Assembly: GCA_964373715.1 (NCBI GenBank)
Contig: CAYJVR010000007.1
Span: forward strand, 26,787-89,931
Direction of reading: 5' to 3'
Source: an uncultured Planctomycetia bacterium
Lineage (GTDB): Bacteria; Omnitrophota; Gorgyraeia; 1-14-0-20-64-10
DNA: 63,145 bases
Below are positions 655 through 47,150 of the stretch, piece by piece. Position numbers and translations under genes: made by a program. A model generated the notes under the pieces. That model was not told the DNA's origin, did no database searches, and was given only the letters and a program-made list of their open reading frames with translations. Within the stretch, counting starts at the first letter, position 1. Every line of letters starts with the position of its first letter.

Positions 655-880
655 TCTGGTCTGGGTGTGAGGAACACCCAACCACTTCCTCCGGCCAGTT
701 CCTGGCCGCTCGACGGTCGCTGTCAAATTAAGTGACCGGCAGGGGTGTCGGCCAGCGCACCGTCGTGAGGCGAGCGGGCATGGTGTCCGCCAACGGCGGA
801 CGAGCGAGCCAAGCGTCGGAACGAGAAGTCCTCGCCGGGGACGACGAGTGATGCATCGGCCGATACCCCTGATGGGAGCT
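655..880. repeat. GC-rich imperfect-palindromic intergenic element, copy R1
   Basis: The arms ggggtgtcggccagcgcaccgtcgt (742..) and acgacgagtgatgcatcggccgatacccc (..870) are near reverse complements. It shares motifs (caccgtc[ga][tc]gaggcg.agcgggca.ggtgtcc, tccgccaacg..ggcggacgagcg) with the copies at 8611, 18752 and 46826. Confidence 0.7.
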
Positions 881-891
881 CAAACTTCATT

Positions 892-1548
892 ATGATTGCA
901 ATAATCGATTATGGGATGGGGAACCTCGCCTCCGTTGAGAAAGCGGTTAAATTTCTCGGCGGCAAGGTGCGGGTGACCTCTGACCCGAGAAAGATCACGC
1001 GTGCTTCGGGGATCATTCTGCCCGGCGTGGGCGCCTTCGGCGCGGCTATGCGTGAGATGAAGAAGCGCCGCCTCATCGGGCCGGTTTCCGCCGCCGCGCG
1101 GGAGGGCAAACCTTTCCTTGGCCTCTGCCTCGGCCTCCAGTTGTTGTTCGAGTCGAGTGAAGAGTCTCCCGGCGTGAAGGGTCTCGGCCTGCTCAAAGGG
1201 AAGGTCCGCCTGCTCCCCAAAAGGCCGGGGCTGAAGATTCCGCACATGGGGTGGAACAACATTAAACCAGTCGTGGAGCGGGGGGCGCGGGGCGGGGGAA
1301 ATCCAAACCGGCAGACACGCAATCCACTTTTAATCGGAATTCCGGACGGGGCGTTCGTCTATTTCGTTCACTCTTATTACGCCGATCCGAAAGAAAAATC
1401 GGTTGTCGCCGCGGTGACCGAATATGGTGTAAAGTTTCCGTCGGTTGTTTGGAACGGTGAGAAACTCTGGGCGACCCAGTTTCATCCGGAGAAGAGCCAG
1501 AAGGTTGGATTGAAAATCCTCGATAACTTCCTGAGGCAGGCGTGCTGA
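892..1548 (+). CDS. hisH: imidazole glycerol phosphate synthase, glutamine amidotransferase subunit
   Basis: Class I GATase motifs: ILPGVGAFG, LGLCLGLQLL, HMGWN, FHPEKS. Position is between hisB and hisA. Carries an extra Gly/Arg loop (VVERGARGGGNPNRQTRN). Confidence 0.9.
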   Translation: MIAIIDYGMGNLASVEKAVKFLGGKVRVTSDPRKITRASGIILPGVGAFGAAMREMKKRRLIGPVSAAAREGKPFLGLCLGLQLLFESSEESPGVKGLGLLKGKVRLLPKRPGLKIPHMGWNNIKPVVERGARGGGNPNRQTRNPLLIGIPDGAFVYFVHSYYADPKEKSVVAAVTEYGVKFPSVVWNGEKLWATQFHPEKSQKVGLKILDNFLRQAC

Positions 1549-2267
1549 TCGTTCCGGCCATCGACCTGCGGGGAGGCAAGGTGGTGCGCCTGCTCAAGGG
1601 GGATTTTTCCCAGGAGACTGTTTTCGGAGAAGATCCGCTTGATTTTGCGAGGCGTTGGGTTTCTCTCGGCGCGAAGCGCTTGCACCTGGTGGATCTGGAC
1701 GGGGCCAAGACCGGAGTTCCTCGCCACATGGAGATTGTTTCCCGGATCGCCCGGGAGGTTGTCATCCCGGTTGAGATCGGGGGAGGCATCCGGACGATGG
1801 CGGCGATCGACCGGTACCTCACTGCCGGCGTTGCCTATGTCATTTTGGGGACCAAGGCCTGCTTCGACGAAGAGTTCTTGACCGGCGCACTAAAAACCTA
1901 CGGCGAAAAGATTTCGGCCGGCGTGGATGTTAAGGATGGGAAGGTTGCCACCGAGGGATGGCTCGCGACCGCGGGTGGAGACCCGGCAGTCTTGGTGGAG
2001 CGGTTGGCCGGTCTCGGGGTGAAGACGATTATTTATACCGATGTGGCTCGGGACGGCGCGATGACCGGTCCCGCGGTCGAGACCTACAAGAAACTGCTCC
2101 CCTACACGAAAGGGAAATCGGCGCTGTTTGCTTCAGGCGGCGTCAGCTCGATGGAGGACCTGCTGAAGCTCAAAGAGCTGGAGAGGGATGGACTGACCGG
2201 CGCCATCGTGGGGCGCGCCCTCTACGAGGGGACACTCGACTTGAAAGAGGCGGTTGCCCGGTGCTAG
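1542..2267 (+). CDS. hisA: ProFAR isomerase (phosphoribosylformimino-5-aminoimidazole carboxamide ribotide isomerase)
   Basis: GTG start overlaps the hisH stop. Motifs [27 protein letters not shown] and IVGRALYEG. Confidence 0.9.
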
Positions 2268-3064
2268 CCAAAAGGATCATCCCCTGTCTCGATGTGAAAA
2301 ATGGCCGGGTCGTCAAAGGGACCCGGTTCGTAAACCTGAAGGACGCGGGGGACCCGGTCGAGGTGGCGCGGCGGTACGAGAAGGAAGGGGCTGATGAGAT
2401 GGTTTTCCTTGATATCACCGCCTCCCACGAGGGGCGGGACACGCGGGCCGATCTGGCCGCGCGCGTTGCCCGGGTGATTTTCATCCCGTTCACGGTTGGC
2501 GGCGGCATCAAGACGATCGGGGAGATCCGGAAAATTTTGCTGGCCGGCGCCGATAAGATTTCAGTCAACACCGCGGCGGTCAAGAACCCGAAGCTGATTA
2601 CCGAGGGTGCGAAGCGGTTCGGTTCCCAGTGCATCGTGGTAGCGATTGATGCCAAAAGAACAAGGGGCAGGAGACAGGGGGCACGGGGCAAAGGGCGAGG
2701 GGCGGGGGGCGGGGGAAAATGGGAGGTGTACCTGCATGGCGGACGGATCCCGACAGGTATCGACGCGGTGGCCTGGGCGAAGAGGGCGGTAAAGCTCGGC
2801 GCCGGGGAAATCCTGCTGACCTCGATGGATTGCGACGGCACGAGAAAGGGATACGACCTGGAACTCACCCGGTCGGTGGCGCAGGCGGTGCCGGTGCCGG
2901 TGATCGCCTCCGGCGGAGCGGGTAATTTACAGCATTTGGTTGCCGGTCTGACCAAGGGTATGGCTGATGCTGTCTTAGCCGCTTCGATTTTCCACTACAG
3001 GCAGTATACTGTTCCACAAGCCAAGCGCTACCTGAAGCGGCATGGCATTTCCGTGAGATTGTAA
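2261..3064 (+). CDS. hisF: imidazole glycerol phosphate synthase, cyclase subunit
   Basis: In-frame GTG at 2261 overlaps the hisA stop, so the listed ORF 1958..3064 is a 5' over-extension. Motifs [40 protein letters not shown] and ASGGAG. Carries a Gly/Arg insertion ([21 protein letters not shown]). Confidence 0.9.
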
Positions 3065-3074
3065 GAGGGGAACG

Positions 3075-3464
3075 ATGGCACATTCATGGATTAATGGGAT
3101 CAAGTTCGATTCGAATGGGCTGGTGCCCGCTATTATCGAGGATGCCGGCACGCATGAGGTTCTGATGGTGGCCTACATGAACAAGGAGGCGGTCGAGAAG
3201 ACCCTCTCCACGAAAAGGGCTCACTTTTATTCACGCTCCCGCCGGAAAATGTGGCTCAAAGGGGAGACCTCAGGCCATATCCAGAAGGTGAAGGGTCTGG
3301 CGATTGACTGCGACGGGGACGCGCTGTTGGTCAGCGTCGAGCAGGTGGGCGGGGCCTGCCATACCGGTTTTCGCACCTGTTTTTACCGGAAGCTCTCCGG
3401 CACAACTTGGAAAGAGACCGGCAAAAAACTATTTGATCCGGATAAGGTTTATGCCAAAAAATAG
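3075..3464 (+). CDS. hisI: phosphoribosyl-AMP cyclohydrolase (monofunctional, no HisE part)
   Basis: [44 protein letters not shown] and CHTGFRTCF. Only 129 aa. Confidence 0.85.
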
Positions 3465-4971
3465 TTCAGGGATAAGACCGACTGCGGAGGAGTTCCTCCG
3501 CCTTGCGAAGAGGGGGAACGTGATCCCGGTCTACCGGGAGATCCTCGCCGATTTTGAGACGCCGTTGTCCGCCTACCTGAAGCTGGAGGGAAGGGGGCCG
3601 GCCTACCTTCTGGAATCGGTGGAAGGGGGCGAAAGGCTGGGGCGCTATTCTTTTCTGGGGGCCGAGCCCTCTTTGATCATGGAATCCCGGGCCAAACAGA
3701 TCTGGCTTAAGGGCCCGCATGAGAACAGGGTATGGGTGACCTTGACCGATCCTCTGACCGAGCTGCAGCAGTTGATGTCCCATTACAAGAGCGTTGAGGT
3801 GCCGGGACTTCCCCGTTTTTGCGGCGGGTTTGTCGGGTATGCCGGCTACGACATCGTCCGGTTCCTGGAACCGGTCGGCGACAGCAAGCCAGACGCTCTC
3901 AATGTGCCCGACAGCGTCTGGTTTCTGAGCGATTCCCTCGTGATTTTCGACCATTTGGAGCACCGGATGAAGGTGGTGGCCAACGCAATTATTGAAGAGG
4001 GCCCGCGGGCCGGGTTCGAGAAGCGGGCGAAGGCCGCTTATGCCAGATCGGTCCGGAGAATTGAGGGGATCATCAAGAAACTGCGCCAGCCCCTCTGGTA
4101 CTCTCCTCCCGCCGGGAAACGCTCGCTTAAGGCCCCGGAGGTCCGTTCGAACATGACAAAGGGGGCTTTTACCGGCTCGGTGCGCAAGGCCAAAGCGGCG
4201 ATCAGCCAGGGGGAAACGATCCAGATTGTCCTGTCGCAGAGATTTCGAGTGCCGGTGGCCTGCTCCCCTTTTGAGATTTACCGAAGCTTAAGGTCTTTGA
4301 ACCCTTCCCCCTACATGTTCTACATCAACCAGGGGTCCTTCGCGCTGGCCGGTTCTTCGCCGGAGATTCTCGTCCGGTGCGAGGACGGCAAGGTAGAGGT
4401 TCGGCCGATCGCCGGGACCCGGCGCCGCGGGAAGACGCCGGCCGCCGACCAGCAGATCGAAGAGGGGCTGAGGCGGGACCCGAAAGAGAGGGCGGAGCAT
4501 CTGATGTTGGCCGACCTCGGCCGCAATGATATCGGAAGGGTTTGCGAGTACGGCTCGGTCAAGGTAAACGAGCTAATGACCGTTGAGCGGTATTCACACG
4601 TGATGCACCTGGTCAGCGATGTGGAAGGAAAACTCCGCAAGGGGATGAACAGTTTTGATGTGCTGCGGGCCTCTTTCCCGGCCGGCACGGTGAGTGGTGC
4701 CCCGAAGGTGCGGGCGATGCAGATCATCAACGAGCTCGAACCGGACGCGCGGGGCCCCTATGCGGGGGCGGTCGGGTACATCAGCTTCAACGGGAATCTC
4801 GATACCTGCATTACGATCCGGACGATCTTAGTCAAAGGGAACCAGGCGTATGTCCAGGCGGGGGCGGGCATCGTGGCCGATTCCAAGCCCGAAAAAGAGT
4901 ATCAGGAAACGCGGAACAAGGCAGCCGGTATGATTGAGGCCATCCATCTGGCGGAACAAGGGCTCGTTTGA
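3451..4971 (+). CDS. trpE: anthranilate synthase component I
   Basis: ATG 3451 ([15 protein letters not shown]) is in frame with the listed ORF 3304..4971 and overlaps the hisI end by 14 nt. Motifs [42 protein letters not shown] and [10 protein letters not shown]. Confidence 0.9.
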
Positions 4972-4990
4972 TGAAAATGACGGAGGGACG

Positions 4991-5608: not shown

Positions 5609-5612
5609 AAAG

Positions 5613-6188: not shown

Positions 6189-6193
6189 CGTCC

Positions 6194-7985: not shown

Positions 7986-8614
7986 CACAGAAGACGTGGG
8001 TGAAGATCTGCGGCACGACGAATCTTGAAGATGCTTTGGCGGCGGTTCAGGCGGGAGCCGACGCGGTCGGCTTCATCTTCGCTCCGACCAGCCCGAGGGA
8101 GATCACCCGGGAGGATGCGGCCAAGATCCTCCCCCAGATTCCCCCCTCCATCCTTTCGATCGGCGTGGTGGTGAACGAAAACACCGATTATTTGAAAGGT
8201 CTTCTGAGGGTGTGCCCCCTTCAGGGGTTCCAGTTTCACGGGGACGAGCCGCCGGAGGAGGTTTTGGCGCTCCGGGATGAGGTAAAGTTTTTAATCAAGG
8301 CGGTTCGGGTGAAGAATGCCGCCTCATTGGAGCAGATCCCCTTTTATAAGGGGGTGAACGCTGTTTTGCTGGACACCTACCGGTCCGATAAAAGAGGGGG
8401 CACCGGCGTTCCATTTGAGTGGGGTCTTGTTTCGAAAGCAAAAGAGTACGGTATCCCGGTGATCGTGGCGGGCGGGCTGACGCCTGCTACTGTGGGTGAC
8501 CTTGTCCGTCAGAGGACTCCCTTTGGGGTGGATGTGGTCAGCGGGGTCGAAAAATCTCCGGGACAGAAAGACCCGCACCTTGTCCGGGAATTCCTCCTTC
8601 GGGCCAAAGGGTAG
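7979..8614 (+). CDS. trpF: phosphoribosylanthranilate isomerase
   Basis: VKICGTTNLEDA, ADAVGFIFAPTSPR, LLDTY..GGTG and GGL.P.TV. The stop codon TAG (8612..8614) lies inside the left terminal repeat of element R2. Confidence 0.85.
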   Translation: MVTQKTWVKICGTTNLEDALAAVQAGADAVGFIFAPTSPREITREDAAKILPQIPPSILSIGVVVNENTDYLKGLLRVCPLQGFQFHGDEPPEEVLALRDEVKFLIKAVRVKNAASLEQIPFYKGVNAVLLDTYRSDKRGGTGVPFEWGLVSKAKEYGIPVIVAGGLTPATVGDLVRQRTPFGVDVVSGVEKSPGQKDPHLVREFLLRAKG

Positions 8615-8928
8615 CGGCCTAGTTTAACAGCCCCACGAAGGGAATTCCGGCAGAGCACCGTCACGAGGCGCAGCGGGCAAGGTGTCCCCCGCCGGGAGAG
8701 CCTGTCTTCGGGCCGCTTGTTCGGCCCGGCGTGCCGGACTGCGCTCGACGGACTCGCTCGCTCTCCCTGAAGGGAACCGTGCCCGCTCGCGTCGTCCGAC
8801 GTCCCTGCAGACAAACTCTCCCGACGGGGGACGAGCCAGCCGAGTGTCGGAGCGAGGAACGGCTCGCCGGGACGTTCCGAACGGTGCATCGCCGGAATTC
8901 CCCGAGGTGGAGCAAACTAGGCCGCTAC
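8611..8928. repeat. 318-bp MITE-like palindromic element, copy R2, with 15-16 bp terminal inverted repeats
   Basis: Left end gtagcggcctagttta (8611..) matches the reverse complement of the right end caaactaggccgctac (8913..8928). Internal arms also pair: ggaattccggcagagcaccg with cggtgcatcgccggaattcc, and agcgggcaaggtgtccc with gggaaccgtgcccgct. Confidence 0.8.
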
Positions 8929-9867: not shown

Positions 9868-10061
9868 GCTCTTTAATCGAAAGGAGATGTCGGTAGCCTG
9901 CCTTTGCCTCTTTTAACGATAGTTATTTTTTCTGCTTAGATTTATGGACGTAACTCAATTTAATATATTGGGTTACGTTTATTTTGTTTAAGAGCGACTT
10001 TTTTTCAGTCTATAATTACTTCCAGAGGTATACTTTTGAATATCAGGTTTTTCTCTTAAAT

Positions 10062-18751: not shown

Positions 18752-18985
18752 GGGTTCTGTCGTGGCCGGGCGGGCATCCGGCATCGGGGCTCGGGGCCTA
18801 GAAGGCCGGTCGCCCCTGCTGGCGGATGCCCGCCCGCTCCACGCCACCCGCTTCAGCATGGGTGACGCCGAGGAGATGCCCGGTCCAGCCGCGCGCAGTT
18901 CCGCAGCCCGAAGGGCGAGGACTGTTCCGCCAACGATCTCTGGCGGACGAGCGGGCGCTCCGAAGGCGGCAGGACCCATGCCAAA
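18752..18985. repeat. GC-rich palindromic element, copy R3 (two hairpin modules)
   Basis: Module A pairs ccgggcgggcatccgg with ggcggatgcccgcccgc. Module B (18857..18980) is bounded by catgggt/acccatg and is homologous to R5, including an exact 23-mer at 18884..18906 that matches the reverse complement of 36310..36332. Confidence 0.8.
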
Positions 18986-24512: not shown

Positions 24513-24587
24513 ATTTTCAGGTTTTTCCTCCTAACCTCAAGTAATATTACTAGTTAGGTTGTTCGGTTGCATTCGGGGGCGCAGACT

Positions 24588-26893: not shown

Positions 26894-27091
26894 AGCAGTT
26901 TCAAGTTTAAGAGTTTATCAGTCCTGAGATTAAGATGTAAGATCGAATAGCAATAATCTTCCTGCCTGCCAATCCTGTTTAATCGTAAATAGATCTAGAT
27001 ATAGCTGCGTATTTTTATAGATTTCCAGCTATACTATAACTACAAACAAATATTCCCTGGATTTAAATTTGATTTTCGATTAACTAATCTC
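26894..27091 (+). promoter_or_regulatory. AT-rich non-coding leader/promoter region of giant ORF 1
   Basis: 198 bp of markedly AT-rich DNA in an otherwise GC-rich window. Contains tatact/tataac-type hexamers. No GGAGG-type SD before ATG 27092. Confidence 0.35.
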
Positions 27092-30000
27092 ATGAAGATA
27101 AAACCGATTGTGGCACGTGTTATAGAAAGAGGAATCAGAGGAGGTACTCTTCTGGTTTTTCTTACATCTTACTCTGTTTCTGAGCCGTACTTACTAGGCC
27201 GGGATACTCTTCGTCCTGAGCCAATTCGAGAAGCAACCGGATCTGGCCTAAAAGAACTAAGAGAAAGAATCTCTGAGGATACTGTCGCATTCAGAGCCGG
27301 CTTGGAGGAGGGTAGCTCTTTGCAAGATTTGATTCGAAACGCTGAAACTCTGTTGGGAGATCCGGCGCAAGAGGCGGTGACTCCGGAGAAAGCTCAATTG
27401 CTGGAACAGTTGATTCCTTGGGTCGAAAAGAAGCTACGGGAGCAGGAGAAAGTTGGATTGCTGCGCCCCACTCTCCAACTGATTGAGAGCGCGCAGTCTT
27501 TTAAGGCTGGGAATACCGTGTTTTTGCCTTTCGAGGCTGCCGACGCCGTTTTTATCACCGATTTGCACGGTGATCGCATCTCGTTCCAACAGATTCTTAC
27601 ACAGGTAAGCTACGATCCGGAGGCGAACAAAAAAGCTCTCCGTAAAAAATATCTGATATTGGGCGGAGATTATGTGGATGGAGGGCCGCGGAGTTTGGAC
27701 GTGCTGCTCAAAACTCTCACTCTTTATCTGCAAGATTCGAAGCATGTTGTTCTCATGGGCGGCAACATCGACCGCTATCGGCTGAAAACCGTAGAACAAG
27801 ACAAGTATCGATTTTTTCTGCAATTGAAAGAGCGATTAGGAACGAACGGTGAAGCTCTTTATAAGAAATGGCAAGAATTTGCCCGCCAATTTTTAGTGGC
27901 GGATGTCATTACAAAAAATGGCTTTGCCTTTGTGCACGCAGCTCCTCCCACCGATAAAGTCCAAGGATATGACCTCGAACGAGGTTTGGAATGGCTCTCT
28001 TTCAGTGATGAAGCGAAGCACGAAATGGCGACGAATTCGTTGCGGCGTCCGGGTTTACCCAATCTTAGCGATGGTTCCGATCAAGAAAACGAACAATACA
28101 GCCGGGATCTTCAAAGGGATTATGAAGGCCACCCTTCCAGCCGGGTTACCGGAATAGAAAGCATCCGAAAATTCGGAGAATTAACAGGGGCATCGGTTAT
28201 TCTTCGGGGGCATGACAGCGGTTCACCCCACGATAAAGCGCTGGTTGTCCCGGTGGAAGGGGGTAAAAAAATTACTGTCCTTACGGTGCATGCTTCCGTA
28301 ATAGGAAGCCCGGAAAGCGAAAAAGTTTATCCGAAAACGCCGAGATGCTACGCGGTAGTGAAGTTGGACCACAATTACACCACGATTGACCCGACCAGTA
28401 CCGATCCGACCGAACAAATTGTCTATCCTGTTTTACCAGACGCCGGCTTGGAGGAGAGCGATGAGGGGCCGCCACCGTCTGCTTTCTGGCCTGAAGAACA
28501 TTTCGAAAGGCTGAGTCAGCGGATTGCCCCGTATGTGACGCAGACTGCAACGGTTCCATTTACCTCTTGGGATGAATTAAAGGCCTACCTGAAACTCCAT
28601 AAAGCGGAATTAGAGCAAAGAAATCACGAGGCCTTAATTGCTTCTGGACAGATAAAGTCGACAGATCCCGTCACTCGGTTCGCGTATCAGACGTTCGTCA
28701 ATGCCTTCTCAGAAGGCGGTTGGGCAACCGGAGTGGGTCAGAATTGGCAGCGGGCCGCGGGGGCATTGGATTTAAGCGAGCGAATCGCGCCGGTTATCCA
28801 GTTTCCGAACGGACAGGCTTTTCCAACCTGGGAGGAGGTGGGGAATTATTTAAGAGATCACAAAGCGGATTTGGAACAACGCAATCATGAGGTTTTGGTT
28901 GTCTCTGGTAAGAAGAAGGCGACGGGTCTAGCGACCCCGGTTTCGTATCAAACCTTCATGCAAGCTTTTTATGAAGCGGGTTGGGTTATAGAAACTGAGC
29001 GGCAATGGATGTATGGGGGAGCTTTTGACCTGGCGGATAGGATTGCCAGCGCCATTCAGCTGCCGGACGGCAAACCATTCGAGAATTGGAACGCCTTAAG
29101 AGAATATCTCAGGGCCAACAAAACTGTTTTTGAAAGAAAGAATTACGAAGCTCAAGTGGTTTCCGGCCAGATAGATCCACAGGAACAAAAGACTCCAACG
29201 TTGTTAGCCTATACGACTCTCGTTTCAGCTTTTCAAGGGGGCGGTTGGGCAAGCTTGTCTCAAGTTTTAAGACGATCTGCGGGGGCTTTGGATCTCGCCC
29301 AGCGTCTTTCTCCGGTGGTTAAGCTTCCAGATAACAAACCTTTCAGTACGTGGGAAGAGGTTAAAGCGTATTTTATGGCCGACAAATCGATTTTGGAAAA
29401 ACAAAATCGGGAAGTCTTGCTCGCTACCAGCCCACTCAAGCCGAAAGACCGTTCTGTGCTATTGGCCTATTCAACCCTTTTGGAAGCTTTCCGAGAGGGA
29501 GGATGGGTGGAAATCCCGGAAGAAGAATACATAAGATGGAAACGGTCCTCTTCTTCTCTCAGTTTAGGGGAGCGGTTGGCGCCGATTGTTCAGTTACCCG
29601 ATGGTCAGCCGTTTTCAAATTGGGAGGATCTAAGGTCCTATTTGAAAGCTCATAAAGCCGATCTGGAGCGCCGGAATTATGAGGTCTTAAGTGCCTCCGG
29701 TCAGGTAGAAGCAGAAGATGCCCCAGGTCCTTTGTCATATACCACGCTTGCGTATGCGTTCGGCGAAGCCGGATTATTTAAGGGCAGTGACGAGGCGTAT
29801 TGGGCCGCTGGCGCTCTTGAACTATCGGAACGGCTTGCCCCGATTGTTCAACTTCCCAACGGTCAGCCGATAGCGACTTGGGAGGATTTGAAAGCTTACC
29901 TGAAAGCGAATAAGGCCAAACTGGAAAGGCAGAATCACGAAATATTAGTTGCTTCCGGGAAGGTAAAGCCGGGTGTTCCTGTTCATCCGCTTTCGTACAA

Positions 30001-32941
30001 CACGCTTGTTAATGCATTTCGGGAAGCAGGTTGGACACCCGCATCAACGACCTATGTGAACTGGGTTGCGAGTGCCGTTGATTTGGCAGAGAGAATCGCG
30101 CCGGCTGTTCAGCTTCCCAATGGCCAGCCGTTCGAGAGCTGGGAAGCCCTCAAAGCTTATTTGAAAGCCAACAAGAGCCGATTGGAAGAACGGAATCACG
30201 AAGTTTTAGTGGCCGCGGGTCAGGTGAAACCGACCGATCCTGTCGGATCTCTTTCGTATCTAACCCTCGTCAGTGCTTTCCAAGAAGGAAGTTGGGCAGT
30301 CGGCGTTGATTATAGCTGGCAACGGAATGCAGGTGGGTTCGATCTCAGCGAGCGGCTCGCGGCGGTCGTTCAGCTTCCCAATGGGCAGCCATTTGGAAGC
30401 TGGAAAGATTTAAAAGAATATTTCACGGCCAATAAGGTTGTTTTGGAAAGGCGGAATCACGAAATGTTGGTTACTTCCGGCCAATCTAAACAGGAGGCCT
30501 CTCCTCGTTCGTTGGCCTATGGTTCTCTGCTGCTTGCATTTCGGGAAGCGGGTTGGACGGGTGAAGAAGTGAAAGGTTGGTTTTGGGATGCGGGCTCACT
30601 TGATTTAGCAGAACGATTGCGGCCTGCCATTCAGCTTCCAGGAGGACAACCGTTTCAGACATGGGAGAGCTTTAAAGCATACCTTTTGGCGCACAAAGCG
30701 GAATTAGAAGCCCACAACCAGAGAGTGTTAGCTGAATTCGATCCTTCGGAATTGCAAGAAGAGGTTTCGGGCAGGTTGTCTTTTGGAACTCTTGTGGGCG
30801 CCGCGATTGAGGCTGAGTTGGTTCTGGGTGACCAAAGCTGGCTTCGGGCGGCAGGAGCCCTTGATTTAAGCGAAAGGATCGCCACGGTCGTCCAGCTTCC
30901 GAGCGGGAAACCATTTAAAACGTGGGAAGATCTCAAGGATTATCTTGTCGCGCATAAACAGGAGTTGGATCGAAAGAACTGGGAAGCGCTGGTGGATTTG
31001 GGACAAATCAAGTCGATCAATCCGATCCAGCCCATTTCGTACGCCACTCTTTATCAAGCTTTTCGAGAAGCAGGGTGGGCGATTCAAGTCAGCCAAGATT
31101 GGTTGCGCGCATCCGCCGGGTTAGATTTAAGCCAGCGGTTGGCGCCGATTGTTCATCTTCCCGATGGACAGCCCTTTAGAACGTGGGGAGATTTAAAGGT
31201 TTATCTTAAACCCCTCAAATTTGCGTTGGAGCAACGGAATCGAGAGGCATTGATCGGGTCCGGCCAGATGAAAACAGACAGCCCCAATCAGGCGCTTTCT
31301 TATGCGACGCTTTTCCAGGCGTTCCGAGAAGCCGGATGGGCAGTGGACGTAGACCAGGGCTGGTTGAGAGATTCCAGCTCGTTGGACTTGGCCGACCGCC
31401 TTTCTCCGTTGGTATTGCAAGACGAAGATCAAGTTCCTTTTTCGACCTGGCCGGAACTCAAGGCCTATCTGATAGCCAAAAAAGCCGATTTGGAACGGCA
31501 AAATACGCAAGCTTTACAAACGTTTGAAGAACCGAACGAAACGACGGTTGCAGGCCGGCTGGCGTACGCGACGCTTGTTGCTGCGTTCCAAGAGATTGGA
31601 TGGACGGCGAGAGTGGATGTCAACTGGAACCGGGCCGCGGGGGCATTGGATTTAAACGAGAGGATCGAAGGTTTTCTCGCGCTCCATCCGTTGCCGGAAC
31701 AGCCGGATTGGCCCGATGTTCGTCAATGGTATCTTGAGAACAGAGAAGGGTTGGCGCAGGCCAACTGGCAAGCTTTGAATCCAGAGACACCCCGTCCGGC
31801 CGATTACTATTTAGCTCCTGCCACAATAGGTTTTGCTCTTGTCGAAGCCGGCCATTTGCCTGAGACTTTGCGAAACGGAATCCATGAAAACGGTATTGAA
31901 TTGAACTATGCTTTGAACCATCAGAGAACATTAATCAGTCAATTGGGAGCTGCTCTTGACCAGCTGAATCCTGTAAATTTTCCAGTTGGACAAGAAAAGG
32001 AATTCGTTACGGCCGTAAAGAATTGGATGCATCCGGAGCTGCTTCTTAAAGTGACAAGTGAGGTTGAACAACAGGACGTCAACAGCCTCGCCGCTGCTTT
32101 CCAGGCGGGGAATCAAACTCCAGCCGGTGCCGCACGGGTGGCCGGGTTGACTGCGGCAAGGGCTCGAAAGCTATGGGGGTATGTCACCGGTGCGAAAACA
32201 TTTGTTCCTGTAACTTACGCAAACAACAGAGCTTTCCCGAAGCTCGTTACAGAATTAGTGGCCGTTCCTTACGCTCAGCCGGTGATAGCCGAGTGGCGAA
32301 GTGGCTTGGAAGAGACCCGAATTTCTGTGCTGGAGCGGAGCGCCATCTCTCGTTTGACGGCAGAACGGGGAATTTTTGAATGGGCGCGATCGTGGGCAGA
32401 GGTTGTCCGTTCCTTGGGAGGCGAACTTTACGATGGAATCATCAACGTCACGAATCCTGATCAACCTGCTTTGTCGAAATCATTCGATTTAACTCGTTCG
32501 TTAGAGGCGGATGGTCATGCTTTAGTTGTTCCAACGCTACCGGCTCAGGAGATAAAGCTCGTTCAGTCAGCCACTTTGTGGGTGCAAAAGGGGGTCCTCG
32601 TGCCTGCTGCGTGGAGGGAGTTTTTCCAAATCAGGGAATTGGCCGCTGAAGAGCCTGAACAAGCCGGGGAAGCTTTGAGGGAAGCCCGAGTAGGGGACGT
32701 TGTTCTGTTGAACGATGAATTCGTTACGGAAACCACTCAAGAAAACTGGGTAAATATCCTGAATGAGCGGGAACTTCTCGGGCTTCGCGTTCCGGCAGGG
32801 ATGAATTTGGAAACATACTCTGAGAAGGATTTGGCCACGCTGCTCATCGTTCTCGAGCGTTCCGGCATCCATTTTTATGATCTTTCCTCTCTTCATGCCG
32901 CCGATATCGAAGGCCAGCGGCAGTTACTCCTCTATCTGTAA
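27092..32941 (+). CDS. giant protein 1 (1949 aa): degenerate PPP/metallophosphoesterase-like head, 12-13 tandem ~87-aa repeats, unknown C-terminal region
   Basis: Single uninterrupted ORF. Head motifs are ITDLHGD, LGGDYVDGG, GGNIDR (in place of GNHE), FVHAAP and LRGHD. The repeat array is described separately. Three [A/S]GLEE motifs at 27296, 28442 and 32300. Confidence 0.85.
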   Translation: MKIKPIVARVIERGIRGGTLLVFLTSYSVSEPYLLGRDTLRPEPIREATGSGLKELRERISEDTVAFRAGLEEGSSLQDLIRNAETLLGDPAQEAVTPEKAQLLEQLIPWVEKKLREQEKVGLLRPTLQLIESAQSFKAGNTVFLPFEAADAVFITDLHGDRISFQQILTQVSYDPEANKKALRKKYLILGGDYVDGGPRSLDVLLKTLTLYLQDSKHVVLMGGNIDRYRLKTVEQDKYRFFLQLKERLGTNGEALYKKWQEFARQFLVADVITKNGFAFVHAAPPTDKVQGYDLERGLEWLSFSDEAKHEMATNSLRRPGLPNLSDGSDQENEQYSRDLQRDYEGHPSSRVTGIESIRKFGELTGASVILRGHDSGSPHDKALVVPVEGGKKITVLTVHASVIGSPESEKVYPKTPRCYAVVKLDHNYTTIDPTSTDPTEQIVYPVLPDAGLEESDEGPPPSAFWPEEHFERLSQRIAPYVTQTATVPFTSWDELKAYLKLHKAELEQRNHEALIASGQIKSTDPVTRFAYQTFVNAFSEGGWATGVGQNWQRAAGALDLSERIAPVIQFPNGQAFPTWEEVGNYLRDHKADLEQRNHEVLVVSGKKKATGLATPVSYQTFMQAFYEAGWVIETERQWMYGGAFDLADRIASAIQLPDGKPFENWNALREYLRANKTVFERKNYEAQVVSGQIDPQEQKTPTLLAYTTLVSAFQGGGWASLSQVLRRSAGALDLAQRLSPVVKLPDNKPFSTWEEVKAYFMADKSILEKQNREVLLATSPLKPKDRSVLLAYSTLLEAFREGGWVEIPEEEYIRWKRSSSSLSLGERLAPIVQLPDGQPFSNWEDLRSYLKAHKADLERRNYEVLSASGQVEAEDAPGPLSYTTLAYAFGEAGLFKGSDEAYWAAGALELSERLAPIVQLPNGQPIATWEDLKAYLKANKAKLERQNHEILVASGKVKPGVPVHPLSYNTLVNAFREAGWTPASTTYVNWVASAVDLAERIAPAVQLPNGQPFESWEALKAYLKANKSRLEERNHEVLVAAGQVKPTDPVGSLSYLTLVSAFQEGSWAVGVDYSWQRNAGGFDLSERLAAVVQLPNGQPFGSWKDLKEYFTANKVVLERRNHEMLVTSGQSKQEASPRSLAYGSLLLAFREAGWTGEEVKGWFWDAGSLDLAERLRPAIQLPGGQPFQTWESFKAYLLAHKAELEAHNQRVLAEFDPSELQEEVSGRLSFGTLVGAAIEAELVLGDQSWLRAAGALDLSERIATVVQLPSGKPFKTWEDLKDYLVAHKQELDRKNWEALVDLGQIKSINPIQPISYATLYQAFREAGWAIQVSQDWLRASAGLDLSQRLAPIVHLPDGQPFRTWGDLKVYLKPLKFALEQRNREALIGSGQMKTDSPNQALSYATLFQAFREAGWAVDVDQGWLRDSSSLDLADRLSPLVLQDEDQVPFSTWPELKAYLIAKKADLERQNTQALQTFEEPNETTVAGRLAYATLVAAFQEIGWTARVDVNWNRAAGALDLNERIEGFLALHPLPEQPDWPDVRQWYLENREGLAQANWQALNPETPRPADYYLAPATIGFALVEAGHLPETLRNGIHENGIELNYALNHQRTLISQLGAALDQLNPVNFPVGQEKEFVTAVKNWMHPELLLKVTSEVEQQDVNSLAAAFQAGNQTPAGAARVAGLTAARARKLWGYVTGAKTFVPVTYANNRAFPKLVTELVAVPYAQPVIAEWRSGLEETRISVLERSAISRLTAERGIFEWARSWAEVVRSLGGELYDGIINVTNPDQPALSKSFDLTRSLEADGHALVVPTLPAQEIKLVQSATLWVQKGVLVPAAWREFFQIRELAAEEPEQAGEALREARVGDVVLLNDEFVTETTQENWVNILNERELLGLRVPAGMNLETYSEKDLATLLIVLERSGIHFYDLSSLHAADIEGQRQLLLYL
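28495..31890 (+). repeat. in-frame tandem array, 12 units of about 262 bp plus a degenerate 13th
   Basis: Unit consensus: ALDLSERIAPVVQLPNGQPF.TWEDLKAYLKANKA.LERRNHEVLVASGQVKP.DP...LSY.TLV.AF.EAGWA......W.RAAG. Unit starts near 28495, 28763, 29021, 29285 and on to 31378, with the degenerate unit from 31643. Confidence 0.9.
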
Positions 32942-34191: not shown

Positions 34192-34232
34192 CGGGGCGTG
34201 GCTCAGCTTGGCTAGAGCGCTTGCATGGGGTG
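34192..34232 (+). repeat. 41-nt exact duplicate of the 5' half of tRNA-Pro(GGG) (att-like direct repeat)
   Basis: cggggcgtggctcagcttggctagagcgcttgcatggggtg is identical to 36131..36171. Identity ends at the 3' edge of the anticodon loop. Confidence 0.9.
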
Positions 34233-36130: not shown

Positions 36131-36208
36131 CGGGGCGTGGCTCAGCTTGGCTAGAGCGCTTGCATGGGGTGCAAGAGGTCCCGAGTTCAAATCTCGGCGC
36201 CCCGACCA
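36131..36208 (+). tRNA. tRNA-Pro (anticodon GGG), CCA encoded
   Basis: Cloverleaf read by hand: acceptor cggggcg/cgccccg, D arm gctc-agcttggcta-gagc, anticodon arm cttgc-atGGGgt-gcaag, variable loop aggtc, T arm ccgag-ttcaaat-ctcgg, discriminator a, then cca. Confidence 0.9.
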
Positions 36209-36223: not shown

Positions 36224-36362
36224 CATCACGGGTCCTGCTGCCGTCGGAGCGCCCCTTCGCCGTGCTCAGACAGTCCTCGACCCTTCTCTAGAAATAAAGT
36301 AAGAAGGGTCTGCGGAACTGCGCGCGGCTGGAAGGGGCATCTCCTCGGCATCACCCGTGATG
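36224..36362. repeat. GC-rich palindromic element, copy R5 (about 139-nt imperfect hairpin)
   Basis: Bounded by catcacggg/cccgtgatg, with central stem gacccttct..agaagggtc. Its reverse complement aligns with R3 module B: gggtga[ct]gccgaggagatgccc, tccagccgcgcgcagttccgcag, gaggactgt and gggcgctccga. Confidence 0.8.
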
Positions 36363-37698: not shown

Positions 37699-38855
37699 AA
37701 ACGGGGCGTGGGGCAGGGGGCGTAGACGAGGGGCGAGGGGCGAGGGGCGAGGGGAAAGCGAAAAAATCTTTCCGACCCGTGTCTCCTGCCCCTTGTCCCC
37801 CGTCTTGGCCCGGTGTCGTCCGACGGTACGCGGAGTTCCTGCCGGTGGGTCCGCAGACGCCGGTGGTCACCCTTTTGGAAGGGAATACCCCGCTGATCCC
37901 CTCCCGGGTTTTAAGCAGACGGTTGGGGAGGGATGTTCAGCTTTATTTCAAATACGAGGGGTTGAACCCTACAGGTTCTTTCAAAGACCGGGGAATGACG
38001 ATGGCGATGTCGAAGGCGAGTGAGCAGGGGTTCAAGACGGTGATCTGCGCCTCGACAGGGAACACCTCCGCCTCCGCGGCCGCTTACGCGGCGCAGGCCG
38101 GTTTGAAGTGCGTTGTCCTGATCCCGAAGGGGGCCATAGCGCTGGGCAAGCTGGCGCAGGCGCTGATCCACGGGGCGAAAGTTCTGGCGGTCAGCGGTTC
38201 TTTTGACGAGGCGCTTGAGATCGTCCGCCACGTGAGCCAGGATTATCCGATCGCTTTGGTCAACTCGGTCAACCCTTACCGGATCGAGGGGCAGAAAACC
38301 GGCGCCTTCGAAATCTGCGATGTTCTCGGGCGGCCGCCGGATTACCACGCGATCCCGGTCGGCAACGCTGGCAACATCACGGCTTATTGGAAAGGGTACA
38401 ACGAGTATTTCAAAGTAGGCAGGGTCAACACCTTTCCTAAAATGATCGGCTTTCAGGCGGCGGGGGCCGCGCCGATCGTTAAAGGACAGGTGATCAAGGA
38501 CCCGGAGACGATCGCCACGGCGATCAAGATCGGGAATCCGGCCAGCTGGGAAGGGGCGGTCGCGGCGCGCGACGCCTCCGGCGGCCTGATCGGCTCGGTC
38601 ACCGACAAGGAGATCCTGGCGGCCTACCAGCTTCTGGCCGAGGAGGAGGGGATTTTTGCGGAGCCGGCGAGTGTTGCTCCCATTGCCGGAATTTTGAAGC
38701 TGGGGAAGAAAGGGTACTTCCGGAAAGGCAGCACGGTGGTCAGCGTTCTGACCGGCCACGGTCTGAAGGACCCGGAACGGGCTGTTCAGACGGTGCGCCC
38801 GCCTAAGGTTGTTCCTCCGAAGATCGGCGCGATCCTGGATGAGATCGGATTCTGA
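37695..38855 (+). CDS. thrC: threonine synthase with a Gly/Arg-rich N-terminal extension
   Basis: ATG 37695 overlaps the hom stop (gg ATG A) and follows ggagagagg. The conserved core starts at [32 protein letters not shown] (PLP lysine). An alternative in-frame GTG at 37779 cannot be excluded. Confidence 0.85.
37703..37754 (+). other. G-quadruplex-type G-tract cluster (seven G4-5 runs) on the sense strand at the start of thrC
   Basis: ggggcgtggggcagggggcgtagacgaggggcgaggggcgaggggcgagggg. The last four runs (37730..37754) are GGGG separated by cga loops. Confidence 0.75.
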
Positions 38856-41461: not shown

Positions 41462-41467
41462 GGTCCG

Positions 41468-43045: not shown

Positions 43046-43100
43046 GTCGTGGGTCTTGAGTAAAATCAGGTTTCAAGACTCACCCCTCACGGCTCACGAC
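43031..43100 (+). other. 14-bp tandem duplication plus a long imperfect hairpin spanning the cimA stop
   Basis: agtcgtgggtcttg occurs twice (43031..43058). The right arm tcaagactcacccctcacggctcacgac (43073..43100) pairs with it, allowing G-U pairs. Loop is agtaaaatcaggtt. Confidence 0.6.
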
Positions 43101-43117
43101 AATGTTACTGGTTGGTC

Positions 43118-45859
43118 ATGACTCGTCCATCCGTTTATTCTCCTTCTGAATCGGAAAACCGCTGGTACCCCGAGTGGGAAGAGAAGGGGTATTTCCGTCC
43201 CGATCTCAACGCTCCTCAAGGGCCCTTCACGATCGTGATCCCTCCGCCCAACGTGACCGGGATCCTCCACATGGGGCATGCGCTGAACAACACCCTCCAG
43301 GACATTCTCATCCGCTGGAAAAGGATGCAGGGGTACTCCACTCTCTGGGTGCCCGGCACCGATCATGCCGGCATCGCGACACAGAACGTGGTCGAGCGCC
43401 AGCTCGCGAAGGATCACCTGACGCGCCACCAACTGGGCCGCGAAGCGTTCGTTAAAAAGGTGTGGGACTGGCGGCAGCAGTACGGTTCGACGATCGTGCG
43501 CCAGCTCAGGCGTCTCGGCTCCTCCTGCGATTGGTCGCGCGAGCGGTTCACGATGGACGAAGGGCTCTCTAAAGCGGTCCAGACCGCGTTCCTGGAGCTC
43601 CACAGCGCCGGCCTTATTTACCGGGGCTATTACCTCGTTAACTGGTGCCCCCGCTGCCAGACGGCGCTCTCCGATGAAGAGGTTTTGCACGAAGAGATCA
43701 AAAGCCATTTCTGGCACATCCGTTACCCGGAAGCGGGGCAAGGGACGGGGGGCGGAGGGCAGGGGGTGGTGGTGGCCACGACGCGGCCCGAGACGCTTCT
43801 CGGCGATGTGGCGGTGGCTGTGCACCCGGAGGACGGGCGGTACCGCTCTCTGGCGGGCAAGACGCTTCAGCTTCCGATTGTCGGCCGCCCCGTCAAGGTG
43901 ATCCAGGATTCCAGCGTGGACAGGGAGTTCGGCACCGGCGCGGTCAAAGTGACTCCGGCGCACGATCCGGCCGATTTCCTGCTCGGGCAGAAGCACGGCC
44001 TCGAGGCGATCCGCGTCATGCAGCCGGACGGCCGGATGAACGAACAGGCAGGCCCCTATGCCGGTATGGACCGGTTTGAGTGCCGCAAGAAGATCGTCGC
44101 CGATCTGGAATCGGCGGGCCTTCTCATCAAGGTGGAAGACCATACCGCCTCGGTCGGCCACTGCTACCGATGCAAGACGGTGATTGAGCCGACTCTCTCT
44201 CCCCAGTGGTTTGTGAAAATGGGACCGCTGGCGAAACTCGGAATCGAAGCGGTGGAGAAGGACGGGATGAGGTTTTACCCGGAGAGATGGACCAAGTTTT
44301 ATCTCGATTGGCTCCGTAACATACGGGACTGGTGCATCTCGCGCCAGATTTGGTGGGGGCACCGGATCCCCGCCTGGTACTGTAAAAAGTGCTATCCGGC
44401 CTACACCGAAAAACAGCAGAGGGGCACCCTCTCAGGCACTCTCGTGATGAACGAGGAGAAGGCCGGTATCTACGTGGGCCACAGTTGCCCGAAAAGCTGC
44501 CGCGCCTGCGGCGGAACCGAATTCGTCCAGGATGAAGATGTGCTCGACACATGGTTCTCCTCCTGGCTGTGGCCCTTCTCGACGCTCGGTTGGCCGGAGA
44601 AGACGAAGGACCTTGCCGCTTTCTACCCCACCTCTGTTCTCGTGACCGCGCAGGACATCATCTTTTTCTGGGTCGCCCGGATGGTGATGGCCGGCAAATT
44701 TTTCCTCAATAAGATCCCGTTTAAAGACGTTTATATCCACGGGATCATCCGGGTGGAAGGGGGCAAAAAGATGTCGAAATCCCTCGGCAATAGCATTGAC
44801 CCCCTCGAGGTCATTGACAAAATGGGCACGGATGCTCTGCGCTTCAGCATCGCCCACATGGCCTCCGAGGGGCAGGATCTGTATCTGTCGGACGCCAAAT
44901 TTCTTTTGGGCCGGAATTTCGCCAATAAGCTCTGGAACGCGGCCCGGCTGATCCTCGATAAGGCGGGGGATGATCTGGAGCGTCCGATACCGTTCAATCC
45001 CCGGTTTCTTACGGTCCCGGACCGGTGGATCTTAAGCCGTCTCCAACGGACGGTGGATTTGGTGACGGACGCTCTCGGGGAATACAAGTTCAACGAAGCA
45101 GCCAGGCTGCTCTACGGCTTTGTCTGGCATGAATTTTGCGACTGGTATCTGGAGATCGCAAAGCTCCAGAGAGAAAGCGGGGACTCAGCACAGGCCAGCG
45201 ACACGGATGAAGTCCTGCTGACGGTGCTGGAGACGGTCTTAAGGCTGCTCCACCCGTTCATGCCGTTTATCACCGAAGAGTTGTGGCACCGGATGGGGCA
45301 GGTGACGCCGGCGAATTCAACGATCATGAAAGCCCCCTGGCCGAAACCCGAAACCGCCTGGCTCGATCCGGCGGCCGAGGAGGCTTTCGGCAGGCTCGAG
45401 GCGGTGATTACAGAGGCGAGGAACATCCGCGCCACCTTCCGGGTGCCGGTCAAACAGCAGGTGAGCCTTTTTATCCGGGGACGGAAAGGGACGGAACTGC
45501 TGTCGCGTCATGAAGCGGTCATTAAACGGCTCGCGTCGGTCGGTGACATGGCTGTGGATCAGAAGACGGCACGCCCGCAGGGCTCTGTGGCGGCCCATCT
45601 GCCGGAGTCGGCGGATTTCGACGCCTGGGACCTGATCGTTCCGCTCGCGGGCCTTGTGGACCTGAACGTCGAGAGGCAGCGGATCGAAAAAGAGATGGAG
45701 GGGATACAGTCCCGGGCCGAGGCGAAGAAGGCGCGTCTTAACGACGGGGTGTTCCGTTCCAATGCTCCGGCCGAGGTGGTGGAGGAGATGGAAAATTCGC
45801 TCAAGGAACTGGAGTCGGAATTAGTCAAATGGACCGAAAGCCTGAAACAGCTTCAATGA
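43118..45859 (+). CDS. valS: valine--tRNA ligase
   Basis: PPPNVTGILHMGHAL (HIGH), KMSKSLGN (KMSKS), CP1 editing region and a C-terminal coiled coil. Confidence 0.95.
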   Translation: MTRPSVYSPSESENRWYPEWEEKGYFRPDLNAPQGPFTIVIPPPNVTGILHMGHALNNTLQDILIRWKRMQGYSTLWVPGTDHAGIATQNVVERQLAKDHLTRHQLGREAFVKKVWDWRQQYGSTIVRQLRRLGSSCDWSRERFTMDEGLSKAVQTAFLELHSAGLIYRGYYLVNWCPRCQTALSDEEVLHEEIKSHFWHIRYPEAGQGTGGGGQGVVVATTRPETLLGDVAVAVHPEDGRYRSLAGKTLQLPIVGRPVKVIQDSSVDREFGTGAVKVTPAHDPADFLLGQKHGLEAIRVMQPDGRMNEQAGPYAGMDRFECRKKIVADLESAGLLIKVEDHTASVGHCYRCKTVIEPTLSPQWFVKMGPLAKLGIEAVEKDGMRFYPERWTKFYLDWLRNIRDWCISRQIWWGHRIPAWYCKKCYPAYTEKQQRGTLSGTLVMNEEKAGIYVGHSCPKSCRACGGTEFVQDEDVLDTWFSSWLWPFSTLGWPEKTKDLAAFYPTSVLVTAQDIIFFWVARMVMAGKFFLNKIPFKDVYIHGIIRVEGGKKMSKSLGNSIDPLEVIDKMGTDALRFSIAHMASEGQDLYLSDAKFLLGRNFANKLWNAARLILDKAGDDLERPIPFNPRFLTVPDRWILSRLQRTVDLVTDALGEYKFNEAARLLYGFVWHEFCDWYLEIAKLQRESGDSAQASDTDEVLLTVLETVLRLLHPFMPFITEELWHRMGQVTPANSTIMKAPWPKPETAWLDPAAEEAFGRLEAVITEARNIRATFRVPVKQQVSLFIRGRKGTELLSRHEAVIKRLASVGDMAVDQKTARPQGSVAAHLPESADFDAWDLIVPLAGLVDLNVERQRIEKEMEGIQSRAEAKKARLNDGVFRSNAPAEVVEEMENSLKELESELVKWTESLKQLQ

Positions 45860-45871
45860 AAGCGGCATCCC

Positions 45872-46825
45872 ATGCCGGAAATTTCCCCTTTCTCGGCTAA
45901 GCTTCAGAAGGAAGCGCTCCTGCCGCTGATCGCGGCGGCTTTGAAGGAGGATGTCGGGGCGCGCGATGTCACCAGCTCCGTCCTTATTCCGAAAGACCAG
46001 TGGGCCAAAGGGGATCTCGTTGTCCGGCAGGAAGGGGTGGCCGCCGGCATCCAGGTCATGGAGTGGACATTCGGCCAGGCCGATCCCCGGATCCGGTTCA
46101 AGCCGAATTTAAGGGACGGAGGCCTCGTCCATCCAGGGAAGGTCGTCGCCTACGTCGAGGGGCCGGCCCGCGGGATGTTGGCCGCCGAACGGACGGCGCT
46201 TAACTTCTTCGGCCGTCTTTCGGGGATTGCCTCTTATACCCGCCAGTTCGTGGACCGGGTCAAAAAGTACAAGGTACAGATCATGGATACCCGAAAGACC
46301 ACCCCGACTCTGCGCTTCCTTGAAAAATATGCGGTGGCGATGGGGGGCGGCACGCTCCATCGAAAGGGGCTCTTTGACCAGGTCCTGATTAAGGACAACC
46401 ATCTTCATCTCATTGCCAGCCGGCTCCACTCGGAATCGGGAGGGTTTCCCTCGACGCCGGGTATCCCGCACCACCGTCTTTCCGCGGTCGAGGCGGCGGT
46501 CCGGGAGGTCCGGCGGAAATTTCTCGCGAAAGCGCTAATCGAGGTGGAGGTGAAGACCTTGCAGGAATTCCGGTTGGCTTTAAGCGCCGAGGCTAACATC
46601 ATCCTGCTCGACAATATGCCGGCCGCCGACATCCAGGAGGCGGTCCGGCTCAGGAACGCGGTGGTTCGGTCAAAAAAGGACCGCAAAATTCTTTTGGAGG
46701 TCTCCGGCGGGGTGCGGCTGGAGAACGTCGAGGCGATCGCCGCGGCCGGCGTGGACCGGATATCAATCGGCGCCTTGACCCACTCGGCGCCGGCGCTCGA
46801 CGTCGCGCTGGACCTGATCGGCTGA
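45872..46825 (+). CDS. nadC: nicotinate-nucleotide pyrophosphorylase (quinolinate phosphoribosyltransferase)
   Basis: AAERTALNF, TRKT.P, KDNH, IEVEV, DNM and SGG. Contains an extra segment of about 20 aa (SRLHSESGGFPSTPGIPHHRL). Confidence 0.85.
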   Translation: MPEISPFSAKLQKEALLPLIAAALKEDVGARDVTSSVLIPKDQWAKGDLVVRQEGVAAGIQVMEWTFGQADPRIRFKPNLRDGGLVHPGKVVAYVEGPARGMLAAERTALNFFGRLSGIASYTRQFVDRVKKYKVQIMDTRKTTPTLRFLEKYAVAMGGGTLHRKGLFDQVLIKDNHLHLIASRLHSESGGFPSTPGIPHHRLSAVEAAVREVRRKFLAKALIEVEVKTLQEFRLALSAEANIILLDNMPAADIQEAVRLRNAVVRSKKDRKILLEVSGGVRLENVEAIAAAGVDRISIGALTHSAPALDVALDLIG

Positions 46826-47150
46826 TGGCCGCGGCCGCCGCCCCGGCAGATCCGTTGTAGCATCGCTCGACGCGTCCCGGCGAGGCGCGTCTCGCTCGCG
46901 CATCCGGCCGCGCTCGTCCCGCTTGTCGCGGGACACCGTGCCCGCGCGGCCTTCTGAGCATGCTTTGCCGGACCTGCCGGAGCAGTGGCTGCCCTGAGCG
47001 GGTGTGGTTCGAAGGCCATCGGAGGTCCGAACGGGCATGGCTCCCCGAAGGGGAGAGTGAGGGCCGACGTTGAGCGCAGCCGGACTCGCAGGGGCCGGCA
47101 AGCGGGCCTGAGAAGCGTACCCGCTCAAGGCATACTTTCTGAGAAAGGAA
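46826..47150. repeat. GC-rich intergenic element, copy R4
   Basis: Contains gggacaccgtgcccgcgc, the reverse complement of the gcgggca.ggtgtcc core of R1 and R2. Also has gtcccggcgag, gctcgacg and ccgaacgggcatgg, which are shared with R2. Confidence 0.65.

Follow-up and report, generated by a model that had tools for sequence, protein, structure and literature searches.

Rickettsia palindromic elements are palindromic repeats of ~100-150 bp that fall into several families, occupy spacers, and also lie in frame within unrelated housekeeping genes, where they supply an extra peptide segment; no transposase is known for them (PMC10969869). Miniature inverted-repeat transposable elements, or MITEs, such as Correia/NEMIS, ERIC, the Coxiella QMITE, and the pneumococcal BOX, RUP, and SPRITE, are short and non-autonomous, form hairpins when transcribed, and occupy spacers within operons and, at times, genes; the pneumococcal elements also cluster and insert into each other (PMC10969869, PMC5896051). 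Here, we describe repeated hairpin modules that resemble these elements and were found in five GC-rich spacers of a 63,145-nt stretch of DNA, called the window, from an uncultured bacterium of the Omnitrophota lineage. The window is positions 26787-89931 of contig C7 (CAYJVR010000007.1, assembly GCA_964373715.1) in a 1.955-Mb genome of 24 contigs with 57% GC and 96% completeness. Omnitrophota are widespread, uncultured bacteria with small genomes. The modules are probably selfish, non-autonomous pieces of hairpin DNA with lineage-specific insertions, which behave like the Rickettsia elements and whose spread is not accounted for by any of the three enzyme families that we tested. Their behavior is closest to that of the Rickettsia palindromic elements and of clustered MITEs (PMC10969869).

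The likeness to the Rickettsia elements covers size, palindromic structure, the existence of several families, in-frame insertion into genes as well as spacers, and the lack of a transposase among the families tested. The differences are that the host belongs to another phylum, that the core in Omnitrophota branches as a three-way junction and has loop motifs that hardly vary, and that the modules are nested. Also, the Omnitrophota copies occur in several frames and both orientations, with no single conserved peptide. Homology to the Rickettsia families is unlikely because the spread of the modules is restricted to one phylum. In heterocyst-forming cyanobacteria, Elhai and colleagues reportedly described, in 2008, very small palindromic repeats that are nested in other repeats, at sites where the hairpin structure is kept. 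Those repeats, from another phylum and with other sequences, have units of ~20-30 nt and are comparable only to the mini-palindrome m described below. No paper that connects Omnitrophota with such repeats was found in the literature.

The five loci lie at 655-880 (between hisB and hisH), 8611-8928 (trpF and an M48 peptidase gene), 18752-18985 (phosphoglucomutase and lepA), 36224-36362 (tRNA-Pro and homoserine dehydrogenase), and 46826-47150 (nadC and uvrB). A sequence-only reading of the window had picked them out as GC-rich palindromic elements between housekeeping genes. The flanking genes proved to be co-oriented at all five. The GC content of the loci, in order, is 0.655, 0.682, 0.726, 0.619, and 0.702, compared to 0.572 for the whole window and 0.31-0.48 for ordinary spacers (for example 9868-9983, 24513-24566, 26894-27091, and 53088-53228). 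Each locus folds back on itself more strongly than mononucleotide shuffles, with z values of -5.9, -6.9, -5.0, -7.8, and -3.4. As that reading also held, the elements have no plausible open reading frame of their own. It recognized no named family in them, and they match no named RNA family. Rfam 15 gave no match at the gathering score in the window and none at E <= 1 for 20 loci covering all the modules. The gathering-score list for the whole window was empty even for the tRNA family, although ARAGORN calls a tRNA-Pro(GGG) at 36131-36208.

The reading had treated the five loci as copies of one family, and this part did not stand. Comparison by blastn with the whole genome showed that the loci are mosaics of several modules, because parts of one locus have different relatives. 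At least seven modules (a, b, c, d, e, f, and m) make up the loci and recur genome-wide in 3-16 copies each, with ~48 for m. They were defined by iterated nhmmer searches of the genome itself and comprise at least two superfamilies, b/c and e/f, as well as a, d, and m, which are combined differently at each locus. The shared sequences on which the single family had been based are real. The exact 23-mer at 18884-18906 is the reverse complement of 36310-36332 and belongs to a 56-nt match at 89% identity, and two of the three shared blocks were found at the positions claimed. The remaining block is common to 759-789 and 8656-8687, which differ by a 1-nt indel, and the regular expression proposed for it fits the second only. 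The coordinates of the loci were correct, with the labels R4 and R5 swapped relative to coordinate order.

The clearest nesting is at the second locus, which has the content d[b[c]]. The left terminal inverted repeat of module d (GGTAGCGGCCTAGTTT...; 8611-8637, plus strand) forms a 16-bp inverted repeat with 8913-8928 and contains the trpF stop codon TAG (8612-8614). Within d, the left arm of b (8638-8693, plus; positions 3-68 of the nhmmer b model, matching C1:396678-396729) and its right arm (8827-8877, plus; positions 52-135) surround a c core that sits in the tip of b (8694-8826, plus). This core is a three-way junction that scores 129 bits with covariance model R1 (E = 2.5e-30; the covariance-model E values are rough). 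The right terminal repeat of d (8878-8928, plus) has a solitary copy at C2:11143-11193 (90%). Full copies of the composite were found at C4:137070-137387 (95%) and C3:20528-20779 (93%). Module d, the outer inverted repeat of this locus, has 3-4 copies in the genome, c (~135 nt) has 15-16, and b (~140 nt) occurs at about nine loci by nhmmer. An unbroken b is seen at C1:396676-396812 and in the first locus.

The other loci hold modules side by side or alone. At the first locus, module a (653-723, plus; covariance model R2, 86 bits) forms two hairpins, its single-stranded TTTCCTC and CCTCGNCGGTCA are conserved, and it is unrelated to the rest of the locus. It is 62-71 nt long and has 14 copies in the genome by nhmmer. 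Next to it is the uninterrupted b (736-870, minus), whose tip hairpin GTCCGCC-AAC-GGCGGAC includes m (786-800); with filters off, this b copy scores 44.5 bits with the c model (E = 2e-9). The mini-palindrome m, TCCGCC-N-GGCGGA, is 15-22 nt long and occurs 48 times in the genome, compared to 2-7 in shuffles. The third locus pairs e with f. Module e (~100 nt, three genome copies) is a hairpin at 18752-18850, plus, with termini GCGGGTYCTGYCG...CACCCGC and an alifold energy of -66 kcal/mol, and it is homologous to the outer shell of a composite in a related genome, G005. The f copy (18854-18983, minus; covariance model R3, 101 bits) has m in its inner arm at 18926-18947 and gives the 56-nt match to 36307-36362. 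The fourth locus is a single f (36224-36362, plus; R3, 152.7 bits), a long hairpin flanked by CATCAC and GTGATG; f is 128-139 nt long and has 7-8 genome copies. At the fifth locus, both modules are inverted relative to the first two loci: b (46846-46982, plus; by nhmmer) gives 29.4 bits with the c model (E = 1e-5), and the c core of subfamily c2 (46992-47125, minus) gives 121 bits with R1 (E = 2.7e-28).

Modules b and c have the common core GCTCGCTCG - tip - ACC(G/A)TGCCCGCTCGC, the c model detects the b copies of the window, and the two are one superfamily of which b is the divergent member. Modules e and f have the common termini GGGTCCTGYCG...CGYCACCC. In G005, the c core lies within an e-like shell of ~470 nt with inverted termini of ~35 bp, which itself lies within a further inverted pair.

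In a self-BLAST graph of the genome, 117 repeated regions form one linked component of 19.3 kb, or ~1% of the genome. Chance resemblance among GC-rich spacers was the outcome that could have dismissed the whole set, and only the high GC content speaks for it. It has next to no probability, and we regard it as refuted by the genome-wide matches and shuffle controls. BLASTN found many extra copies with E values from 1e-14 to 1e-140 in a 2-Mb genome, covariance-model E values reach 1e-30, and none of 500 shuffles equaled the observed pairing of the c core. The linked component also includes an abundant family (~45 copies) in which 8-nt units in tandem, (GCCGGTTT)n, lie opposite (AAACCGGC)n, with stems GTCATTGCGAG...CTCGCAATGAC as a frame; its sites include C10, C1:1-14000, C21:1463-1826, and C18:7531-7784. 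In other genera (L093, L099, L331, L337, and L338), related GTCAT... repeats sit between hisB and hisH and between nadC and uvrB.

Comparison with orthologous junctions showed that the elements were gained. The relatives compared do not have the elements there. The hisB-hisH junction, 262 nt here with a and b, was compared in 16 genomes of the same family: it measures 0-6 nt in nine, holds different, unrelated hairpin repeats in five, and, in one, contains what by eye is a pair of toxin-antitoxin type. Between phosphoglucomutase and lepA, all 13 relatives compared have 0-22 nt, and metagenome contigs with LepA identity of up to 75% have 0-26 nt, compared to 259 nt here. In the nearest metagenome contig (82% LepA identity), another gene lies upstream and the junction carries no element. 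The nadC-uvrB spacer, 332 nt here with b and c, is absent (0 nt) in three relatives. In G005 it spans 78 nt and contains another hairpin repeat, and in most of the remaining relatives a small gene for a membrane protein sits there. These spacers are therefore insertions rather than conserved regulators. By eye, genes of toxin-antitoxin type are seen at two junctions of relatives: an AbrB/RelE-like pair at hisB-hisH (L107, in G018) and a PIN-like gene upstream of lepA (L416). Such tight junctions appear to be general landing sites.

Copies were also found inside genes. A c copy adds ~47 residues in frame to QueA, and another adds ~44 residues in frame to the inter-domain linker of CobB. Module a lies antisense and in frame in dihydrofolate reductase (folA) and in MutS, with 21 additional residues in each, and it lengthens MnmA and FolP. 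It also joins hemD to hemE in one uninterrupted 649-codon frame (C2:64313-66262), where the Pfam domains HEM4 and URO-D flank it, and it lies between two genes that by eye are of glycosyltransferase type in one 596-codon frame (C1:283098-284888). These two joins may be real fusions or read-through artifacts of annotation. A gene for a DUF819 membrane protein is split by c, and the contents of the same loop vary across genera. G000 and G005 have b or c in sense, G009 and G001 have c in antisense, G004, G003, G014, and G010 have other hairpins, and G015, G016, G017, G006, and G018 have no insert and a linker of 66-78 nt. This points to repeated independent insertions at a permissive site.

The c core has a conserved fold of ~135 nt, a three-way junction at which an outer stem meets a 5' side hairpin and a main arm that is long. 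The side hairpin reads CGCTTG-stem-CCCAGCGWG-stem-CTGCGCT, and the main arm reads CTCGCTC-variable tip-ACCRTGCCCGCTCG. The motifs CGCTTG, CCCnGCGnG, CTgCgCT, cTCgCTC, and CCnTGCCCGcTcg are unpaired and near-invariant. The outer stems vary between copies and yet remain complementary. Compensatory changes were seen in 19 of 28 pairs of c within its own genome and in 11 of 16 pairs of module a. With 33 copies of c from 30 genomes, 92.5% of pair cells were standard, compared to 34-50% with slid partners, and 25 of the 28 pairs had changed on both sides. Mutual information from 100 distinct c copies recovered the same helices and extended them; these helices are nested only, and no clear pseudoknot or tertiary covariation was seen.

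This very strong covariation raises the possibility that the modules, chiefly the c core, are structured RNAs, an alternative that the sequence-only reading had also named. They could be cis elements of operon transcripts, with a role in processing, stabilization, or translational coupling, or small RNAs, and in either case the high copy number would stem from function and not from selfish spread. A branched fold with near-invariant loop motifs across the phylum is consistent with this, as are the tetraloop-like tips CTTCGG and CGAAGG, the position of all five loci between genes that look co-transcribed, and a mild sense bias (24 sense to 13 antisense for c between co-directional genes). Nevertheless, both orientations occur, also within the window, where c is on the plus strand at 8694 and the minus strand at 46992, and f is on the plus strand at 36224 and the minus strand at 18854. 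Intragenic c copies are sense in four cases and antisense in six, and in-frame copies in either orientation are found in queA, cobB, folA, mutS, and the DUF819 gene. G-U pairs outnumber A-C mismatches only slightly (72 and 46, respectively, in 2800 cells of the c copies). The elements are missing from orthologous junctions of relatives, Rfam has no match, and no promoter-like sites (-35/-10 hexamers) or terminator-like sites (T run after a hairpin) were predicted within the five loci. The orientations, the G-U counts, and the lack of such sites favor a structure that acts in DNA, or no strand-specific role. Thus, we consider structured RNA a rather improbable explanation.

The modules differ widely in how far they extend among relatives. 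By covariance model, the c core is present at full length in 60 of 121 related genomes, or 54 of the 104 genera of the class, with up to at least 25 copies per genome; copy numbers in relatives are lower bounds, as 27 candidates were scored per genome. Module a is limited to the family: of its 19 other genomes, 10 have it, and the remaining 101 relatives searched do not. Besides this genome, only G011, G006, and G012, all from the family, have strong matches to f (59-97 bits), and weak matches of 36-48 bits in eight further relatives may be generic long hairpins.

A pattern was also run against prokaryotes, with each species represented by one genome; it gave at least 119 stretches, from which 80 loci were taken for scoring. 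The c model was passed by 57 of these 80 loci (61 matches), almost all from Candidatus Omnitrophota metagenome-assembled genomes, the labels and binning of which may be wrong. The other labels among the matches listed were Planctomycetales/Planctomycetia genomes, three candidate-phyla-radiation genomes, and two unclassified ones. Among the matches listed, 19 from other phyla failed the c model, as chance predicts. A viral origin was likewise not indicated, since all five pattern matches in IMG/VR failed the model. On these matches, the c core appears to be an old repeat family common to Candidatus Omnitrophota. Full-length c copies of 54-67 bits were also seen on contigs labeled Peregrinibacteria, Gracilibacteria, and Patescibacteria group (L160, L213, and L158). 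These candidate-phyla-radiation copies are either mis-binned Omnitrophota contigs or the result of transfer between co-occurring groundwater lineages.

REP, BIME, and REPIN elements, moved by RAYT proteins, are GC-rich imperfect palindromes that form mosaics and are likely DNA-hairpin substrates, and in these respects they are like the modules (PMC3337134, PMC3733652). The genome has one Y1_Tnp gene, an IS200-like gene of 200 residues at C10:2456-3058, which is RAYT-like in that it is flanked by inverted repeats of its own. Since the modules are GC-rich palindromes and mostly extragenic, this single Y1 (IS200-type) transposase could be their mover. However, the repeats that flank it (C10:2413-3085) are inverted copies of GGTACCGGGTTCYNNGGGGACAC, which has ~10 copies elsewhere (C3:149845, C20, C22, and C23) and is a family distinct from the modules. 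Y1 genes are present in 80% of c-bearing genomes and 77% of genomes without c, and 12 c-bearing genomes have no Y1 gene, including G005 (at least 25 copies), G009, and G003 (14 copies each). The modules, at 60-150 nt with c branched, are also 3-5 times longer than hairpins of 20-40 nt with a GTAG or CGTC tag, lack such a tag, and are partly intragenic. This explanation is largely refuted, and we hold it to be very unlikely. The Y1 gene and the GGTACCGGGTTCYNNGGGGACAC repeats appear to form a small REP/RAYT system of their own, apart from the modules.

Two other enzyme families were rejected as movers. IS110-type transposase genes were found in 21 of 121 genomes and are missing from G000, G005, G009, and G003; reverse transcriptase genes were found in 24 of 121 and are missing from G000, G005, and G003. 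Neither tracks c. The genes between paired copies are ordinary ones, for example a pseudopilin gene.

Another possible explanation is that the elements are classical MITEs, with the outer shells (d and the 35-bp repeats of G005) moved by the DDE transposase of a related insertion sequence and the cores carried as passengers. A perfect 16-bp terminal inverted repeat, GGTAGYGGCCTAGTTT, bounds the 318-bp composite at the second locus, which has three copies at 93-95%, and the ~470-nt composite of G005 has long inverted termini and many similar copies. These termini are conserved between copies for both the d shell (16 bp) and the G005 composite (~35 bp); the outer stems of the c core are not. On the other hand, no direct target-site duplication was seen around any of the three copies of d[b[c]] or around those of G005, and the genome itself has no transposase gene that lies between two such termini; other genomes were not searched exhaustively for a parent insertion sequence. 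Moreover, the part conserved here is the inner core and not the termini, and it is conserved phylum-wide and not genus-wide. For these reasons, we view the classical MITE explanation as unlikely. The sequence-only reading had described the elements as MITE/REP-type: they are indeed short (modules of 60-320 nt), dispersed, and hairpin-forming, and the name serves as a working analogy only, given the missing target-site duplication and the different repeat around the Y1 gene.

The flanks beyond a copy tend to be inverted repeats private to that copy. Examples are CATCAC/GTGATG at the fourth locus and perfect 10-13 bp stems at C2:110137 and C2:125400. We infer that insertion took place at hairpin tips or palindrome centers, or that insertion itself produced the inverted flanks. 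Under the preferred reading of selfish hairpin DNA, the modules are stacked like Russian dolls, with one in the tip or arm of another, or set side by side, as seen for a+b, e+f, and b+c. Their structure would work in DNA, where the hairpin would be single-stranded or cruciform. A putative trans-acting enzyme would recognize the near-invariant loop motifs and put copies into hairpin tips or palindrome centers. Copies would then persist wherever they are tolerated, which is at tight operon junctions and, in frame, in surface loops and linkers of proteins.

Several points weigh against selfish hairpin DNA. No mobilizing enzyme was found among the Y1, IS110-type, and reverse-transcriptase genes tested; DDE transposase families were not searched. 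The target-site duplications are missing, as noted above, and no movement event was documented. Strain-level empty sites were not found, as the exact-protein look-up returned identical contigs only and the nearest contig in metagenomes had 82% LepA identity. The best hint of recent activity is the 95% identity of composite copies, together with the near-equal model scores of three G005 copies (109-111 bits). Also, gene calls near the copies followed a crude open reading frame rule, with a Pfam check on some of the intragenic cases only. Both the surplus of sense copies (24:13) and the small surplus of G-U pairs could be weak signs of RNA. Finally, the loop nucleotides are conserved phylum-wide and the outer stems vary, opposite to the pattern of a classical inverted-repeat transposon; this would also fit a functional RNA or a binding site for a host protein.

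A bolder proposal is that the c core is a new, Omnitrophota-specific structured nucleic acid, either mobile or used by the host, whose near-invariant loop motifs on the three-way junction would be read by a putative conserved protein outside the HUH/Y1, IS110, and reverse-transcriptase families, or that it is a self-active RNA. In this case, the protein would insert copies at hairpin tips or palindrome centers, which would give inverted instead of direct flanking repeats and, in turn, nested shells. We regard this as doubtful. If a new enzyme proved to act on the junction, or the junction proved to be an RNA with activity, a new kind of mobile element would be added.

Whatever moves them, nested hairpin repeats take up ~1% of this genome, where they reshape operon junctions, provide stop codons, fuse reading frames, and lengthen essential enzymes. 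With a covariance model for the phylum-wide core, annotators could mask the copies and thus avoid spurious open reading frames and false fusions. The core element could also be used as a marker for strain typing, and the model turns the hunt for the mobilizing or binding protein into a concrete problem of comparative genomics.

Other features were seen in the window. The hom-thrC spacer (37699-37800) contains a G-rich repeat that combines (GGGGCGA)n and a 21-nt arm, ACAAGGGGCAGGAGACAGGGG. The repeat with the ACAAGGGGCAGGAGACAGGGG arm is found, inverted and in frame, in hisF (2655-2720), where the His_biosynth match takes 245 residues for 227 profile positions. Near the fourth locus, tRNA-Pro (36131-36208) has an exact second copy of its first 41 nt at 34192-34232, ~1.9 kb upstream. 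Small open reading frames lie between the gene and this repeat, and one of them, from 34361, is by eye similar to a nucleotidyltransferase-type antitoxin. The segment looks like a small cassette that was inserted beside the tRNA gene. In addition, 33966-34232 matches C12:1778-2036 at 86%. Two giant reading frames are present at 27092-32941 (1949 residues) and 53229-63143 (more than 3305 residues), and the 1949-residue frame contains tandem repeats of 261 nt (87 residues), family D1.

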